Below, in pieces: positions 10,612-59,690 of a stretch of DNA of 64,000 nt. Source of the DNA: Chitinophagales bacterium (GTDB taxonomy: Bacteria; Bacteroidota; Bacteroidia; Chitinophagales; UBA8649); assembly GCA_020635975.1 (NCBI GenBank), contig JACJYT010000003.1, forward strand, positions 394,655-458,654, read 5' to 3'. Each line of letters opens with the position of its first letter. Position 1 is the first letter of the stretch. Below the pieces are notes generated by a model, which made no database searches, was not told where the DNA came from, and saw only the letters and a program-made list of their open reading frames with translations. Both the position numbers and the translations under genes were made by a program.

Positions 10612-10641
10612 AAAAAGCCCTTCTTTAGAAGGGCTTTTTTA
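10612..10641 (+). terminator. rho-independent terminator of the adhesin operon
   Basis: GCCCTTC (10617-23), loop TTTA, GAAGGGC (10628-34), followed by TTTTTT. Confidence 0.7.
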
Positions 10642-40260: not shown

Positions 40261-40297
40261 AAAGCCCCATCGAAAATCGATGGGGCTTTTCTTTTTT
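40261..40297 (+). terminator. rho-independent terminator after rpsA
   Basis: GCCCCATCGA (40264-73), loop AAA, TCGATGGGGC (40277-86), followed by TTTTCTTTTTT. Confidence 0.75.
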
Positions 40298-43043: not shown

Positions 43044-43514
43044 TTAGTTTTTTTCGAAGGTGAGATAATCGGTGCCGCCATTACCGCCACTTACATCTAT
43101 TAACTCGATTTTGTTAGCAGATTGAGAAATAAAATCCCAATCGTCGTTTAAGTCTTCAAAATCGTTCGTTAGATTGAACTGAATATTAAAATCTAGATCG
43201 TCTTGACTATCATCATTGCTATTGCTATCGCTTATGCTCCAAGTGCCCGTATAGCTAGTAGAACCATTGCTGGCTGTTAATACGCCCGAACTATTAAAGC
43301 TAAAGTTATAGGAAGTAAAGTTGCTCGTTTCATCCGAGCCAGAATCTATAAAGCTTGTTATTCGCCAAGTACCATCTTGCACATTGCTAATAACTGTATT
43401 TTGAATATTGTCGCTTGGATTGTCATCCTCTTTAGAACAAGAAGCTAGTATGAATAAGCCTAAAAATGCCATGTAAAAGATGAAGCTTTGGGTAGTGCGT
43501 TTTCTATTTTTCAT
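43044..43514 (-). CDS. hypothetical lipoprotein (lipocalin-like), directly abutting the CDF gene
   Basis: Lipobox ILASCSKEDDN with an Asp/Ser/Asn-rich body. There is no gap to the downstream CDF gene. Confidence 0.5.
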   Translation of the reverse strand: MKNRKRTTQSFIFYMAFLGLFILASCSKEDDNPSDNIQNTVISNVQDGTWRITSFIDSGSDETSNFTSYNFSFNSSGVLTASNGSTSYTGTWSISDSNSNDDSQDDLDFNIQFNLTNDFEDLNDDWDFISQSANKIELIDVSGGNGGTDYLTFEKN

Positions 43515-43815
43515 TGTATTTGCTTTAATATTTATAAATCTTACTTTCTTCTAAAAATCAAAATCTAAGCTTTAGCTACACCTTTGGTCTTAGCAAGATC
43601 AGAAGCCAATTTAAAGATAGCGAGTCTATTTTATTTGCTAAAATATTACTTCGTCAATTTTTTTTCGGGATGCAAGTTGAGCTTTTCGTTCTTTGACTTG
43701 CTCAATAGTAGTTAAAGAAAAGAGGCTGCGCCTAGATAAGTGTTAATTACTTTAAAAATTTAACTCCTTGATTAAAAAATATTTCCATCCTACTTTTATT
43801 ATCTAAATCAATTCC

Positions 43816-43823
43816 TATATTTA
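43816..43823 (+). promoter_or_regulatory. -7-like promoter box TATATTTA immediately upstream of the cys leader ORF
   Basis: 7 of 8 match to TAnnTTTG, ending 5 nt before the ATG at 43829. This implies a leaderless or near-leaderless transcript. Confidence 0.35.
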
Positions 43824-43828
43824 CCACC

Positions 43829-43894
43829 ATGTTTAACTCATCCATTTTAACTATCTGTTGTTGTACTGCTTATCTCGGTAAGGAGGACGTATAG
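43829..43894 (+). CDS. candidate cysteine-rich leader peptide (21 aa, MFNSSILTICCCTAYLGKEDV)
   Basis: ATG...TAG ORF with TGT TGT TGT at 43856-43864. It lies between a divergent upstream gene and the cysE-cysK operon and is followed by a terminator. Confidence 0.5.
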   Translation: MFNSSILTICCCTAYLGKEDV

Positions 43895-43916
43895 CTATAT
43901 TTAAAATTTAAATTAT

Positions 43917-43960
43917 AAAAGCCCCTTCTTAGTTTTTCTTAGAAGGGGCTTTTTCGTTTT
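43917..43960 (+). terminator. intrinsic terminator/attenuator in the cysE-cysK leader
   Basis: AAAAGCCCCTTCT (43917-29), an 11-nt loop, AGAAGGGGCTTTT (43941-53), with a T-rich tail to 43960. The cysE ATG is at 43963. Confidence 0.65.
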
Positions 43961-43962
43961 AT

Positions 43963-44787
43963 ATGAAAAATTTAATCGACAAAATTCAATCTTACAATGC
44001 CGTTTACATGGCAAAATTGCCGGCTACTTCGGACATAGAGCAGTTCGTGGATAGCTTAATTGATTTTCTATTTCCCATGCGACTTGGAGCTAGCAGCGCT
44101 CGAATGTCGACTTTAGCAGATGTAGAGCTTTTAGAGGAGAAGTTTCTTACCCTCATTACATCTGTGGTAGATGAAGATAAAAGGCTTCCTTTAAGCCAAG
44201 ATTTCTTTTCTAAGCTAGAATCCATTTTTGAAAACTTGCATTTAGATGCCGCAGCTATTTTAGAATTTGACCCTGCAGCTAATTCTCTTCTTGAGATAGT
44301 AAGTGCTTATCCGGGCTTTTACGCAGTTGCCGTGTATCGTATTGCCTCCGAAATGGAACAATTAAAACTGCCTTATATACCAAGACTCATGAGCGAGTTG
44401 GCGCATAGTAAAACGGGTATAGATATCAATCCAAGAGCACGAATAGGAGAATCGTTTTTTATTGATCATGGTACCGGAGTGGTTATTGGCGAAACAACCG
44501 TAATAGGGAAGCAAGTGAAGCTCTATCAAGGGGTAACATTAGGTGCACTTCAAGTCAGTAAAGAACTGGCTAATACCAAAAGGCATCCTACTATTGAAGA
44601 CGGGGTGATAATCTATTCGGGTGCTACCATCTTAGGAGGGGAGACCATTATAGGTTCCAATTCTGTAATTGGAGGGAATGTATGGCTAACGGAAAGTGTA
44701 CCATCTAATTCTATTGTATTTACCCAACACGAGACCAAGATTAGAGACAAAAAAGAATATGTACAAGCGATTGACTTCGTAATTTAA
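43963..44787 (+). CDS. cysE: serine O-acetyltransferase
   Basis: 274 aa with a left-handed beta-helix hexapeptide region (GIDINPRARIGESFFIDHGTGVVIGETTVIG...GVTLG). Confidence 0.8.
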   Translation: MKNLIDKIQSYNAVYMAKLPATSDIEQFVDSLIDFLFPMRLGASSARMSTLADVELLEEKFLTLITSVVDEDKRLPLSQDFFSKLESIFENLHLDAAAILEFDPAANSLLEIVSAYPGFYAVAVYRIASEMEQLKLPYIPRLMSELAHSKTGIDINPRARIGESFFIDHGTGVVIGETTVIGKQVKLYQGVTLGALQVSKELANTKRHPTIEDGVIIYSGATILGGETIIGSNSVIGGNVWLTESVPSNSIVFTQHETKIRDKKEYVQAIDFVI

Positions 44788-44808: not shown

Positions 44809-45720
44809 ATGAAATTTAACAATGTCTTAGGTGCTATAGGAAATACACCACACGTAAAAATTAACAAGCTTTTTTCTTCAGATTATAAGGTTTATGCCAA
44901 ATTGGAAAGGCAAAATCCGGGTGGTTCTATTAAGGATAGAATTGCATTAGCTATGATAGAAGATGCCGAAGAAAAGGGCTTGCTAAACAAGAATAGTGTT
45001 ATTATTGAACCCACTTCTGGAAATACTGGAATTGGCTTAGCACTAGTAGCAGCCGTCAAAGGCTACAAGCTTATTCTAGTTATGCCAGAATCTATGAGTT
45101 TAGAGCGTCGTAGATTAATGCGCGTTTACGGGGCTGAGTTTGTTCTTACTCCAAGAGAATTAGGCATGAAGGGTGCCATAGAAAAGGCAGAAGAGCTTGC
45201 TGCTCAAACAGAGAATTCTTGGCTTCCTCGACAATTTGATAATCCTGCCAATATTGGCATACATGAGAAAGCTACGGCTCAAGAAATAATAAAAGATTTT
45301 CCAGAAGGCTTAGATTATGTAATAACCGGTGTAGGAACAGGTGGACATATAACGGGAGTGGCCAAAGTTTTGAAGGAGAAATTCCCTAAATTAAAGGTGT
45401 TTGCTGTTGAACCCGAAGCTTCGCCCGTAATTTCTGGAGGTGCTCCAGGTCCACATCCCTTGCAAGGAATAGGTGCAGGTTTTATTCCTAAAAATTTGAA
45501 TGTGAATTACCTCGATGGGGCTATCGCCGTTGGTAAGGAGGAAGCTTTTGACTATGCACAAAGAGCAGCTAGAGAAGAAGGACTTTTTGTTGGCATATCT
45601 TCAGGTGCTTCTTTAGCCGCTGTAGCAAAGAAATTAGCGGAACTTCCGAAGGGAAGTAAAGTACTTACTTTTATATATGATACTGGCGAGCGTTATTTAA
45701 GCGTAGAGGGTTTGTATTAA
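44809..45720 (+). CDS. cysK: cysteine synthase A (O-acetylserine sulfhydrylase)
   Basis: PLP-enzyme motifs [31 protein letters not shown]. Confidence 0.92.
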
Positions 45721-45785: not shown

Positions 45786-45817
45786 AAAATCCTTGTTCAT
45801 TGCTGAACAAGGATTTT
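45786..45817. terminator. bidirectional hairpin terminator between the convergent cysK and LRR genes
   Basis: AAAATCCTTGTTCA, loop TTGC, TGAACAAGGATTTT, flanked by an A-run and a T-run. Confidence 0.6.
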
Positions 45818-45836: not shown

Positions 45837-47552
45837 TTAGTTTATTACCAACTTGTATCGATCGCCTTCGGCGCTTATCAAGAAATACAAGCCACTAGGT
45901 AGAAGTTCTAAGTACACTTGATTGAAACCAGCAGTTAATTCTAATTCTTGGTATACTGAACCAAAGAGATCTACAATTTGCACTGCTAGCGCTTTGTTGC
46001 TTTCTACTCGAATGAAATCTTTTACCGGGTTAGGATAAACGGAAGAGAAATTACTAGCATGGAGTTCGCTAATGCCAGTTGCTGTACAGTCTTTATTAAA
46101 ACTGTGTTGTGCATCGAAAATATAGGGATCTTCATTAGCTAGAATACCATTAATCCAATTGTTGGTGCTGTATTCCGTACTATCTACCAATATGCAATCT
46201 AAGTTTGGATTGTTGTGGATCCATAAATAATCGAGGTTTTCGTTGTTACCATTAGCAAGGTTCAAACTGCTTAAGATGCCATTGTGCGCATAAAGCGAAG
46301 TTAGATTGCTATTCTGACTTAAATCTAGACTAGGCATTTGTAAGTCGTGACAGAAAACACTGCTTAAATTGCTTAACATACTTAAGTCTATAGAGGTGAT
46401 ATTCGTTTCGTTGAAGGCTATATTAACCAAATTGGGTACGGTACTTAAATCAATAGAACTAATTGGGTTTTGAGCAAAGTATAAATTGAATAGGCTTGTT
46501 GAACTACCTAAGTTGAGGCTGCTTATTTGATTGTTATTACAATTAAATTGTCCAATATTCGGATTGTTACTAATGTCTAAACTGCTTAAGTTGTTATTAT
46601 AACAAACTAAGCTTTGTAAATTAACATTCTGACTTAGATCTAAACTGCTAATTTGGTTACCCACTATGATTAGATTGATTAGAGCTGTATTATTACTAAT
46701 GTCAAGAGAGCTCAGTTGGTTATTAATTGCTTCAAAGGTTTGTAATGCGGTATTCGCACTAAGATCAACACTGCTAATATTATTATAAGAGCAAACTAAA
46801 CCTTTTAGGTTAATGAATTCTTCAATACCGGTTAGGTCGCTGATGTTTAAACTGGCACAAGCAATAAAGGCATTAAAGTTGTTTGCTTCACTAACTTGAA
46901 TTTCGCTATCATTGTTGGTGTTTATTGCAGAATTGCCAACTAAATAGGCTTTAAAATTGGCATCTGGAATATTCACCACTGCTGGACCACAGTTATTGCT
47001 AAAGGAAACGCCAGCATCAAATTCAAAGCTTGGACCTGTCCAATTGTACGAACTTGTATCGGCATCATCAATTTGTATGCAGCTTAAATTTGGAGTAGAA
47101 GCTACAGCCAACAAGCTAAGATTGGCATTGTTGCCATTGGCAATGTTCAAGTAGTTTAATGGCGTATTTAAACCAACTGCTATAGAACTTAGAGCTGTAT
47201 TTGCACTAAGATCCAAACTGCTTATTGCGTTGTTTTGACAGTTAAGGGTAGTAAGAGCTAAGTTATTACTTAAGTCTAAACTAGTTAAAAATGAACTCCA
47301 GCAAACCAATCCAGTTAAGGATGTAAAAGCTTCGATACCCGTTAAATCGCCCATGTTTTGGTTAGCACAATTAATAGTGCCGGTAAAGGCTTGGGCTTCG
47401 CTTACTTGAATTTCTCCGTCATTGTTGGTATTGATGCTCGTATTTCCTACTAGATAGGCCTTGAAGCTAGCACTCGGAATGTTTACGTTTTGCGCAAAAT
47501 TTTGGCTAAAAGCAATAATAAGTACCGCTGTGAAAAGTAATTTTTTAATCAT
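45837..47552 (-). CDS. leucine-rich-repeat surface protein with a T9SS type A C-terminal sorting domain
   Basis: 571 aa with a signal peptide. It has a duplicated N-terminal module (NIPSASFKAYLVGN... and NIPDANFKAYLVGN...) and many 22-aa LRRs (LxxLDLSxNxxLxxLxCxxNxIS). The C-terminal domain reads VYPNPVKDFIRVE...LPSGLYFLIS. Confidence 0.75.
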   Translation of the reverse strand: MIKKLLFTAVLIIAFSQNFAQNVNIPSASFKAYLVGNTSINTNNDGEIQVSEAQAFTGTINCANQNMGDLTGIEAFTSLTGLVCWSSFLTSLDLSNNLALTTLNCQNNAISSLDLSANTALSSIAVGLNTPLNYLNIANGNNANLSLLAVASTPNLSCIQIDDADTSSYNWTGPSFEFDAGVSFSNNCGPAVVNIPDANFKAYLVGNSAINTNNDSEIQVSEANNFNAFIACASLNISDLTGIEEFINLKGLVCSYNNISSVDLSANTALQTFEAINNQLSSLDISNNTALINLIIVGNQISSLDLSQNVNLQSLVCYNNNLSSLDISNNPNIGQFNCNNNQISSLNLGSSTSLFNLYFAQNPISSIDLSTVPNLVNIAFNETNITSIDLSMLSNLSSVFCHDLQMPSLDLSQNSNLTSLYAHNGILSSLNLANGNNENLDYLWIHNNPNLDCILVDSTEYSTNNWINGILANEDPYIFDAQHSFNKDCTATGISELHASNFSSVYPNPVKDFIRVESNKALAVQIVDLFGSVYQELELTAGFNQVYLELLPSGLYFLISAEGDRYKLVIN

Positions 47553-59606: not shown

Positions 59607-59690
59607 GCCCGAGTGGCGGAATTGGTAGACGCGCTGGATTCAAAATCCAGTTTTCGCAAGGAAGTGCGGGTTCGATTCCCGCCTCGGGTA
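59607..59690 (+). tRNA. tRNA-Leu (anticodon CAA)
   Basis: GCCCGAG acceptor stem paired with CTCGGGT. Anticodon arm CTGGA-TTCAAAA-TCCAG, a long variable arm and T-arm GCGGG-TTCGATT-CCCGC. No encoded CCA. Confidence 0.9.

Follow-up and report, generated by a model that had tools for sequence, protein, structure and literature searches.

Leader-peptide attenuation is best known from trpL, hisL, thrL, pheL, leuL and the ilv leaders (Rfam Trp_leader, His_leader, Thr_leader and Phe_leader), and in the textbook view cysteine biosynthesis is under the control of either proteins (CysB, CymR) or S-box and T-box RNAs. Here we describe a short open reading frame (sORF) with three consecutive Cys codons, and the hairpin that follows it, which together precede the cysE-cysK operon in a 64,000-nt stretch of DNA from a Chitinophagales bacterium (contig JACJYT010000003.1, positions 394,655 to 458,654). 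This whole stretch is referred to as the window, and coordinates given without a locus name are positions in it. A preliminary description of the window had proposed that this leader is a cysteine-sensing attenuator.

In the transcript maps of Flavobacterium psychrophilum, leader-peptide attenuators of hisG and ilvE were reported, the trp operon was found to be preceded by a Trp peptide leader RNA, short coding sequences with tandem aromatic codons were noted, and no cysteine leader was reported (PMC9723704 supplement). Upstream of cys operons of actinobacteria, leader peptides with Cys runs but no terminators have been predicted (Seliverstov et al. 2005, PMC1262725). In Mycobacterium smegmatis it has been shown that leaderless sORFs that carry polycysteine at the C-terminal end unmask a Shine-Dalgarno site and thus exert translational control (Canestrari et al. 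2020, bioRxiv 10.1101/834739). The same paper reports that cysK1-cysE of M. tuberculosis is also preceded by a polycysteine sORF, and that attenuation mediated by upstream open reading frames had not been described for cysteine before that work (bioRxiv 10.1101/834739). In Rhodobacterales, uORFC-8-2 upstream of cysS, which has Cys codons in tandem and ends in a U run, is predicted to act by ribosome-mediated transcription attenuation (Brewer et al. 2021, PMC8632094). The preliminary description was aware of no Cys-codon leader family, and this has to be corrected because such leaders are described in bioRxiv 10.1101/834739, PMC1262725 and PMC8632094. For Bacteroidota, no description of a Cys leader was found in searches of a full-text collection that lacks most subscription journals.

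The comparative evidence given below supports the logic that had been proposed for the leader, namely that stalling on the Cys codons would free an antiterminator, and we hold with good confidence that the element is probably a ribosome-mediated transcription attenuator, in which the charging of tRNA-Cys is sensed and read-through into cysE-cysK is thereby controlled. All of its parts lie on the plus strand. The sORF MFNSSILTICCCTAYLGKEDV has 21 codons (43829-43894) and there is no in-frame start codon further 5'. The three consecutive Cys codons, TGT TGT TGT, are at 43856-43864 and are codons 10-12 of the 21, which is in the middle of the reading frame, and the stop codon TAG is at 43892-43894; every coordinate of the sORF agreed with the preliminary description. 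In the window TGYTGYTGY was observed 6 times compared to 4.25 expected, so that a Cys triplet by itself is not unusual and its significance rests on context and conservation and not on the triplet. Downstream of the sORF, AAAAGCCCCTTCT (43917-43929) pairs with AGAAGGGGCTTTT (43941-43953) in 13 perfect pairs, and past a T-T mismatch there are two extra pairs (A43931-T43939 and G43932-C43938) and a loop of 5 nt. The complete arms are AAAAGCCCCTTCTTAG (43917-43932), which we call region 3, and CTTAGAAGGGGCTTTT (43938-43953), which we call region 4. The U-rich tail of this putative intrinsic terminator, TTTTTCGTTTT (43950-43960), stops 2 nt short of the cysE ATG at 43963. The strong hairpin with a T-rich tail that had been described at 43917-43960 was found with the same positions and pairing, the gap from tail to ATG being 2 nt.

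The segment 43905-43962 folds with -22.8 kcal/mol (z = -7.0) and none of 200 shuffled sequences was as stable. When 23 members were aligned with a covariance model, the terminator helix was nearly 100% paired and carried GC/AU and CG/UA exchanges, and these compensatory changes argue that the helix between the leader and cysE is a real intrinsic terminator. A U tract lies 3' of the hairpin in every lineage. Because the tail ends 2 nt before the ATG and leaves no room for a promoter, all transcription of cysE-cysK must pass this terminator. The hairpin was also considered as a repeated or mobile element and this was ruled out, as the 12-mer of the terminator arm occurs exactly only at the leader site in the window. 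Hairpins of the AAAGCCC...GGGCTTT style with T tails were also seen at gene ends of the window (10613-10638, 40261-40289 and 45786-45817), which indicates that this genome uses intrinsic terminators of that style.

Close relatives of the locus were found by CysE homology search, an exact look-up of the protein having given no entry; there are about a dozen proteins more than 60% identical in a collection of 5.8 billion proteins, and the contigs for most of these were examined. Seven distinct relatives (L081, L082, L084, L085, L087, L089 and L091; CysE 66-70% identical) carry the leader with promoter, sORF and terminator. In all seven the start, stop, frame and length of the sORF are kept, and the regulatory codons are TGT TGT TG(T/C) throughout the family, so that both the Cys codons and the hairpin are conserved in orthologous leaders. 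The shared unit begins with AAATCAAT, followed by 3 nt, TATATTT(A/G), exactly 5 nt, and the ATG of the 21-codon reading frame, which encodes M-[FL]-x-x-x-[IV]-[LF]-x-x-C-C-C-[TA]-[AST]-Y-L-x-[KR]-[KE]-[ED]-x; it continues with an AU-rich spacer and GCCCCTTCTTAGTT ... GAAGGGGCTTT, and the cysE ATG is about 10 nt on. The mean pairwise identity among the 8 members is 83% in the 148-nt leader compared to 72% in cysE DNA, 48% at third codon positions of cysE and 58% in the next 150 nt upstream. That the identity of the leader is above that of cysE points to a stronger nucleotide-level constraint on the leader than on the enzyme gene. The upstream neighbour varies among the relatives, being a TetR gene (divergent), a thioredoxin-like gene with its own terminator, or DUF6435, and the cysE-cysK pair is retained in all of them. 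Therefore the leader unit travels with cysE-cysK and not with the upstream gene.

The predicted antiterminator strand, region 2, is GTAAGGAGG (43878-43886), which is separated by 5 nt from the leader stop codon and can pair either with region 1, CTGCTTAT (43866-43873), located right after the CCC codons, or with the terminator 5' arm. Within it, TAAGGAGG (43879-43886) can pair with CCTTCTTA (43924-43931) in 8 bp including one G-U, and thus the 3' half of region 3 (43924-43931) doubles as the partner of region 2. This pairing was the candidate antiterminator of the preliminary description, which had called it weak; it was found as described, and across the alignment of the close family 64 of 64 cells of helix 2:3 are paired. 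It is the minimum-energy fold of the nascent RNA of the window lacking the 3' arm (-8.4 kcal/mol), and when region 4 is included the terminator prevails at -22.8 compared to -8.4 kcal/mol for helix 2:3. Region 2 varies (A/G) only at two positions which face U, and the changes are nonsynonymous (E to K and K to R). They alter the peptide and yet keep the pairing, and this argues that the constraint acts on the RNA and not on the peptide. GCCCCTTCTTAGTT of the terminator 5' arm is invariant in the close family, and the TTAG of this arm, which falls within the loop of the terminator in 7 of the 8 members and has a pairing role only with region 2, is still invariant. AAGGAGG in region 2 was also considered as a Shine-Dalgarno or pause site and was rejected, since AAGAAGG or AGGAAGG stands in its place in half of the family. 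As judged by eye from the alignment, such G-to-A changes would break the pairing with the anti-Shine-Dalgarno sequence but not that with the terminator arm, and a Shine-Dalgarno role is therefore unlikely.

A putative anti-antiterminator hairpin formed by regions 1 and 2, which was absent from the preliminary description, is present too. Region 1 is CTTCTTAT in the relatives, and in L087 it makes the perfect 8-bp hairpin CTTCTTAT-TTGT-ATAAGAAG. Over the close family 92% of the cells of helix 1:2 are paired. The helix is strong in L087, L089, L092 and L042, and in several lineages it is not significant compared to shuffled sequences. There is a resemblance between regions 1 and 3 and likewise between regions 2 and 4, as in the classical 1:2 / 2:3 / 3:4 design. 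A natural loss of these parts was seen in L090 (CysE 68% identical; 1525-1690), which has a homologous leader with the -7 box TACATTTA and its 5-nt spacing kept. In this leader TGT TGT TGC is replaced by CGG TGT GGC, a 12-nt deletion takes out region 2, and both terminator arms are mutated, and cysE and cysK are intact. This joint loss of Cys codons, region 2 and terminator arms fits a single functional unit. The contig of L090 is from a very large assembly (GCA_023268315.1) and may belong to a host-associated bacterium.

The promoter of the leader is predicted from a -7 box of the Bacteroidota sigma-A type (consensus TAnnTTTG), TATATTTA at 43816-43823, which is TATATTT(A/G) in all family members. 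As had been pointed out earlier for the window, a -7-like box ends 5 nt before the leader ATG, and this spacing is exactly 5 nt in 8 of 8 members of the close family; it is 4 nt in L092 and L093, whereas in leaders of the Flavobacterium and L097 types, with about 17 nt, the mRNA is probably leadered. It has been shown that the sigma-A box TAnnTTTG of Flavobacterium spans -12 to -5 relative to the transcription start (PMC9723704). When this position is applied to the box at 43816-43823, the transcription start is predicted at 43828 (+/-1 nt), 1 nt 5' of the leader ATG, and the sORF is probably translated from a leaderless mRNA or one with a 1-nt leader. For the spacings of 5 nt and 4 nt taken together, the predicted start is 0-1 nt ahead of the AUG. 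Since the spacing differs by lineage, a leaderless or near-leaderless mRNA would be a trait of the clades of the window and not of all lineages. Just 5' of the -7 box is the conserved block AAATCAAT (43805-43812), which from the family alignment is possibly promoter context or an operator. In several relatives a direct repeat, AAAATCAATTTT(T), with copies 33 bp apart, straddles the -7 box (L089:1590-1635 and L082:1836-1885), one copy being 5' of the box and the other within the first leader codons, and the window retains well only the upstream copy (43805-43812). A DNA-binding regulator might use this repeat as its operator; alternatively, the repeat could be the reason for the conserved K-S-I-[LF] in the peptide.

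Leaders of this architecture are not confined to the close relatives. In two further Chitinophagales clades, L092 (CysE 61% identical) and L093-L096 (CysE 58%), the layout is the same and the leaders are different, namely MSIQTQVLTNCCCSSFLRRSDF and MISTNLISCNICCCTYYPEGCW, respectively, and Flavobacterium strains carry the leader MKSNFFHNSICCCFSK. An unbiased survey was made of 80 cysE loci from species-representative Bacteroidota genomes, in which the best CysE identity was 53-64%. sORFs with at least 3 consecutive Cys codons within 400 nt upstream of cysE were found at 10 of the 80 loci on the sense strand and at none of the 80 on the antisense strand. Four of these ten have a GC-rich stem and a U tract: L005 (Chitinophagaceae), L006 (Bacteroidales), and L042 and L068 (Flavobacterium). 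Shorter Cys runs with the same terminator layout are present in L058 (Flavobacterium, CICC), L003 (Bacteroidales, CC) and L064 (Flavobacterium, C-Y-C). The last of these is a Flavobacterium metagenome-assembled genome (MAG) in which, at L064:2808-2938, the leader MQLVYITFCYCFPQLLRSDLL has C-Y-C replacing CCC in front of a terminator of the same type; it was missed by the screen for three or more Cys codons and found by the covariance model, and 10 of 80 is therefore a lower bound. The covariance model of the close family recovered distant leaders at the expected position with marginal E-values, mixed with ordinary terminators. A DNA-pattern scan of metagenomes returned 18 loci, of which 5 are true members and 13 are chance matches. 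The true members are L097, L102, L104 and L114, which are upstream of cysE, and L105, which is before a sulfite-reductase-like gene; the 13 rejected loci have a chance TGTTGTTG near a GCCCCTTC/GAAGGGGC terminator. The stretch that begins with the leader ATG and ends with the U tract measures 125-143 nt in L092, L093, L005, L006, L042/58/64/68, L097/102 and L104/114.

Some loci met in these searches differ from the rest. L105 (263-640, minus strand) has two tandem units of Cys leader and terminator, with the leaders MNKKIMICKRKNCCCMVDTSGLVPV and MMINGKPGCCCMIKARGLVPV, preceding a gene with a nitrite/sulfite-reductase ferredoxin-like domain, which indicates that the Cys leader is not confined to cysE and can be duplicated in series. 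The other six of the ten survey loci are from Marinifilaceae (L004, L008, L012, L014, L015 and L023), where a longer sORF of 50-60 amino acids lies some 100-310 nt 5' of cysE and has 5-12 Cys codons in a row at its end, the 12 being in L012 (Ancylomarina euxinus). After the poly-Cys sORFs of these six loci no clear terminator with a GC-rich stem and a U tract was found, and their layout is closer to the mycobacterial C-terminal polycysteine type than to that of the window. Among the chance matches of the metagenome scan, L099 (1073-1176 and the sequence directly upstream of it, minus strand), with MSTTFMNSNRLFFTSESVTEGHPDK..., precedes a metK-like gene; its leader sequence resembles a SAM-I riboswitch and has no relation to the Cys leaders.

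When the 2:3 pairing was ranked against all same-length windows of each locus in 10 representative sequences, region 2 was complementary to its own terminator 5' arm with an empirical p of 0.004-0.09 for each. Fisher's combined p for these 10 sequences was 1.2e-7, which is optimistic in that they share ancestry and are not fully independent, and mononucleotide shuffles agreed with this result. The segments of region 2 and of the terminator 5' arm are UAAGGAGG and CCUUCUUA in the window, GAGGGCU and AGCCCUU in L093, CUGGAGGG and CCCCUCAG in L005, GAAGGGUU and AAGCCCUUC in L006, and GAGGAGUC and GACUCUUC in L068. In 13 sequences region 2 begins 10-18 nt past the last Cys codon, and in most of them 13-15 nt past it. 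The footprint of a stalled ribosome on the mRNA would end just short of region 2.

A probable sequence of events is as follows. Transcription from the TATATTTA box would start at about 43828 and translation of the leader would begin almost at the 5' end of the RNA. With an ample supply of Cys-tRNA, the ribosome would pass region 2 (43878-43886) and reach the stop codon at 43892, and region 2 would then be covered by the ribosome or paired again with region 1 (43866-43873). Regions 3 and 4 (43917-43932 and 43938-43953) would fold and RNA polymerase would terminate 2-10 nt short of the cysE ATG. If Cys-tRNA runs low, the ribosome would stall at 43856-43864 and cover region 1; region 2, which begins 13-14 nt past the last Cys codon, would be free and would pair with CCTTCTTA once the terminator 5' arm is made. 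Owing to this 2:3 pairing the terminator hairpin would form late, and the polymerase would have time to enter cysE-cysK. It is a speculative addition that in the clade of the window the hairpin, which ends 10 nt before the cysE AUG, may also hinder the initiation of cysE translation.

Besides the shared ancestry of the ten sequences, several observations weigh against attenuation. Helix 2:3 of the window is weak and no better than that of shuffled sequence (z = 0.12), and the p for the 2:3 complementarity of the window itself is only 0.06-0.12. The 1:2 hairpin of the window has only -5.4 kcal/mol and one internal G-G mismatch. Two-sided compensatory changes in helices 1:2 and 2:3 were not found in the close family. 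Of the two alternative helices for which covariation analysis had been proposed earlier, the terminator shows compensatory changes across 23 members; in the close family, column-wise covariation is uninformative because the sequences are too conserved. It has been reported that leaderless mRNAs are a minority of about 5.5% of flavobacterial mRNAs (PMC9723704). Finally, about 65 of the 80 surveyed cysE loci do not have such a leader, and it is therefore not a general solution in Bacteroidota.

Other explanations for the locus were considered. If the hairpin hides the start region of cysE and stalling at the Cys codons opens it, control could be translational only and transcription would not be terminated. 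The end of the hairpin 10 nt before the cysE AUG in the clade of the window fits this, as do the dependence of initiation in Bacteroidota on unstructured upstream RNA and the translational action of the mycobacterial Cys sORFs. However, a GC-rich stem directly before a U tract in every lineage is the signature of intrinsic termination, the hairpin is 25-50 nt or more from the cysE start in other lineages and too distant to mask it, and the same style of hairpin closes ordinary genes in the window. We therefore consider translational control alone unlikely, and it is the most credible of the four alternatives. Next to it, and unlikely as well, is that a DNA-binding regulator acting at the AAATCAAT repeats is the true cysteine sensor and that the hairpin is only a fixed partial terminator or an insulator. 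There is a conserved block 5' of the -7 box, and in several relatives a direct repeat with 33-bp spacing lies across the promoter, but such a regulator leaves unexplained the Cys codons, their fixed distance to region 2, and the complementarity between region 2 and the terminator in lineages whose promoters differ. As an extra layer beside attenuation a promoter-bound regulator is possible.

The conservation of the reading frame, its length and the CCC run could also mean that the sORF is a gene in its own right, which encodes a Cys-rich micropeptide and has a separate terminator, with cysE being expressed by constitutive leak-through and no sensor involved. However, the residues outside CCC vary freely, even with charge reversals, while the pairing of the RNA is kept, and the peptides of different lineages have only the Cys run in common. 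Moreover, a micropeptide gives no reason for the link to cysE and sulfite reductase or for the complementarity between region 2 and the terminator, and in L090 the sORF and the terminator were lost together. We give this explanation a little less credit than either of the preceding two. Least of all do we credit a chance reading frame beside an ordinary terminator: TGYTGYTGY is not over-represented in the window and the energy of the antiterminator is unexceptional, as would be expected by chance, but the conservation is far above neutral, the survey of 80 loci gave 10 positive ones on the sense strand and none on the antisense strand, and the architecture recurs in several lineages, all of which makes chance very improbable.

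The cysE gene (43963-44787, plus strand), which would be the first to be regulated, encodes an EpsC-type serine O-acetyltransferase (NCBIfam NF041874, 151.4 bits compared to a cutoff of 150), and cysK (44809-45720, plus strand) encodes cysteine synthase A (TIGR01139, 406 bits compared to a cutoff of 351); cysK is 21 nt 3' of cysE and is presumably co-transcribed with it. The gene upstream of the leader (43044-43514) is on the minus strand. Thus, strand and NCBIfam assignments agree with the preliminary description, in which the upstream gene was divergent and the downstream genes were cysE-cysK. At the end of the operon is the hairpin at 45786-45817, which has 14 pairs and then a T run and lies between the convergent cysK and minus-strand gene 45837-47552. 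The preliminary description had placed the organism with the Flavobacteriia; this does not hold, as CysE of the window is 100% identical to a protein of a Chitinophagales MAG. When the leader region was searched against Rfam 15 (E up to 10) there was no match at the gathering score, Thr_leader and Phe_leader giving 19.7 and 20 bits, respectively, compared to 55. The 11 related-leader loci likewise gave no Rfam match at the gathering score. In the whole 64 kb of the window a single Rfam match exceeded that score, a tRNA gene at 59607-59690 (plus strand), and below threshold all three of these searches gave only generic terminator-like matches.

We lean, by a modest measure, towards regarding this as the first classical terminator/antiterminator leader-peptide attenuator of a cysteine biosynthesis operon, defining an undescribed family that senses the charging of tRNA-Cys in at least three Bacteroidota classes (Chitinophagia, Bacteroidia and Flavobacteriia). 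If so, the family would include a leaderless version in the clade of the window and a tandem-duplicated version before a sulfite-reductase-like gene, and the poly-Cys sORF type of Marinifilaceae, with up to 12 Cys, would be a separate but related form. A classical Cys attenuator in Bacteroidota would fill a gap, the sulfur-assimilation regulators of this phylum being largely uncharacterised, and it would supply a functional label for a recurrent unannotated sORF. It would also be a test case for coupled transcription and translation together with leaderless initiation in bacteria that do without Shine-Dalgarno sequences, and as a tool it would be a compact part of 130 nt that reports the charging of tRNA-Cys.

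In comparison with the classical attenuators, the leader of the window has in common with them the short reading frame with tandem codons for the end product, a predicted 1:2 / 2:3 / 3:4 layout, and a putative intrinsic terminator right before the first biosynthetic gene, and here too a stalled ribosome would lead to read-through. It differs from them in that cysteine is the regulatory amino acid, in that the host belongs to Bacteroidota, where initiation is not led by Shine-Dalgarno sequences, in that the mRNA is probably leaderless in the clade of the window, and in having no sequence relationship to them. With the leaders of F. psychrophilum it shares the phylum, the predicted mechanism and the position upstream of amino acid biosynthesis operons, whereas those leaders are for Trp, His and Ile, belong to other operons, and have ordinary 5' untranslated regions unlike the predicted leaderless start in the window. 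For those leaders, transcript maps lend support to structured 5' regions. Like the mycobacterial sORFs, it has Cys codons in an upstream sORF, predicted to be leaderless, before a cysteine biosynthesis operon. In the mycobacterial type, however, the Cys tract is C-terminal, its pairing partner is the Shine-Dalgarno region of the gene that follows, and there is no intrinsic terminator, whereas in the window CCC is in the middle of the reading frame, the pairing partner is an arm of the terminator, and a terminator with a U tract is present. The leader of the window thus follows a similar principle without belonging to the mycobacterial polycysteine family. uORFC-8-2 is different again in that it controls cysteinyl-tRNA synthetase in alphaproteobacteria and has two Cys codons at positions 14-15 in the first stem and an unrelated sequence. 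Taken together, the element is of a known type, the leader-peptide attenuator, with an amino acid specificity that is new for the classical form and was previously unnoted in the phylum, and it is not categorically new.

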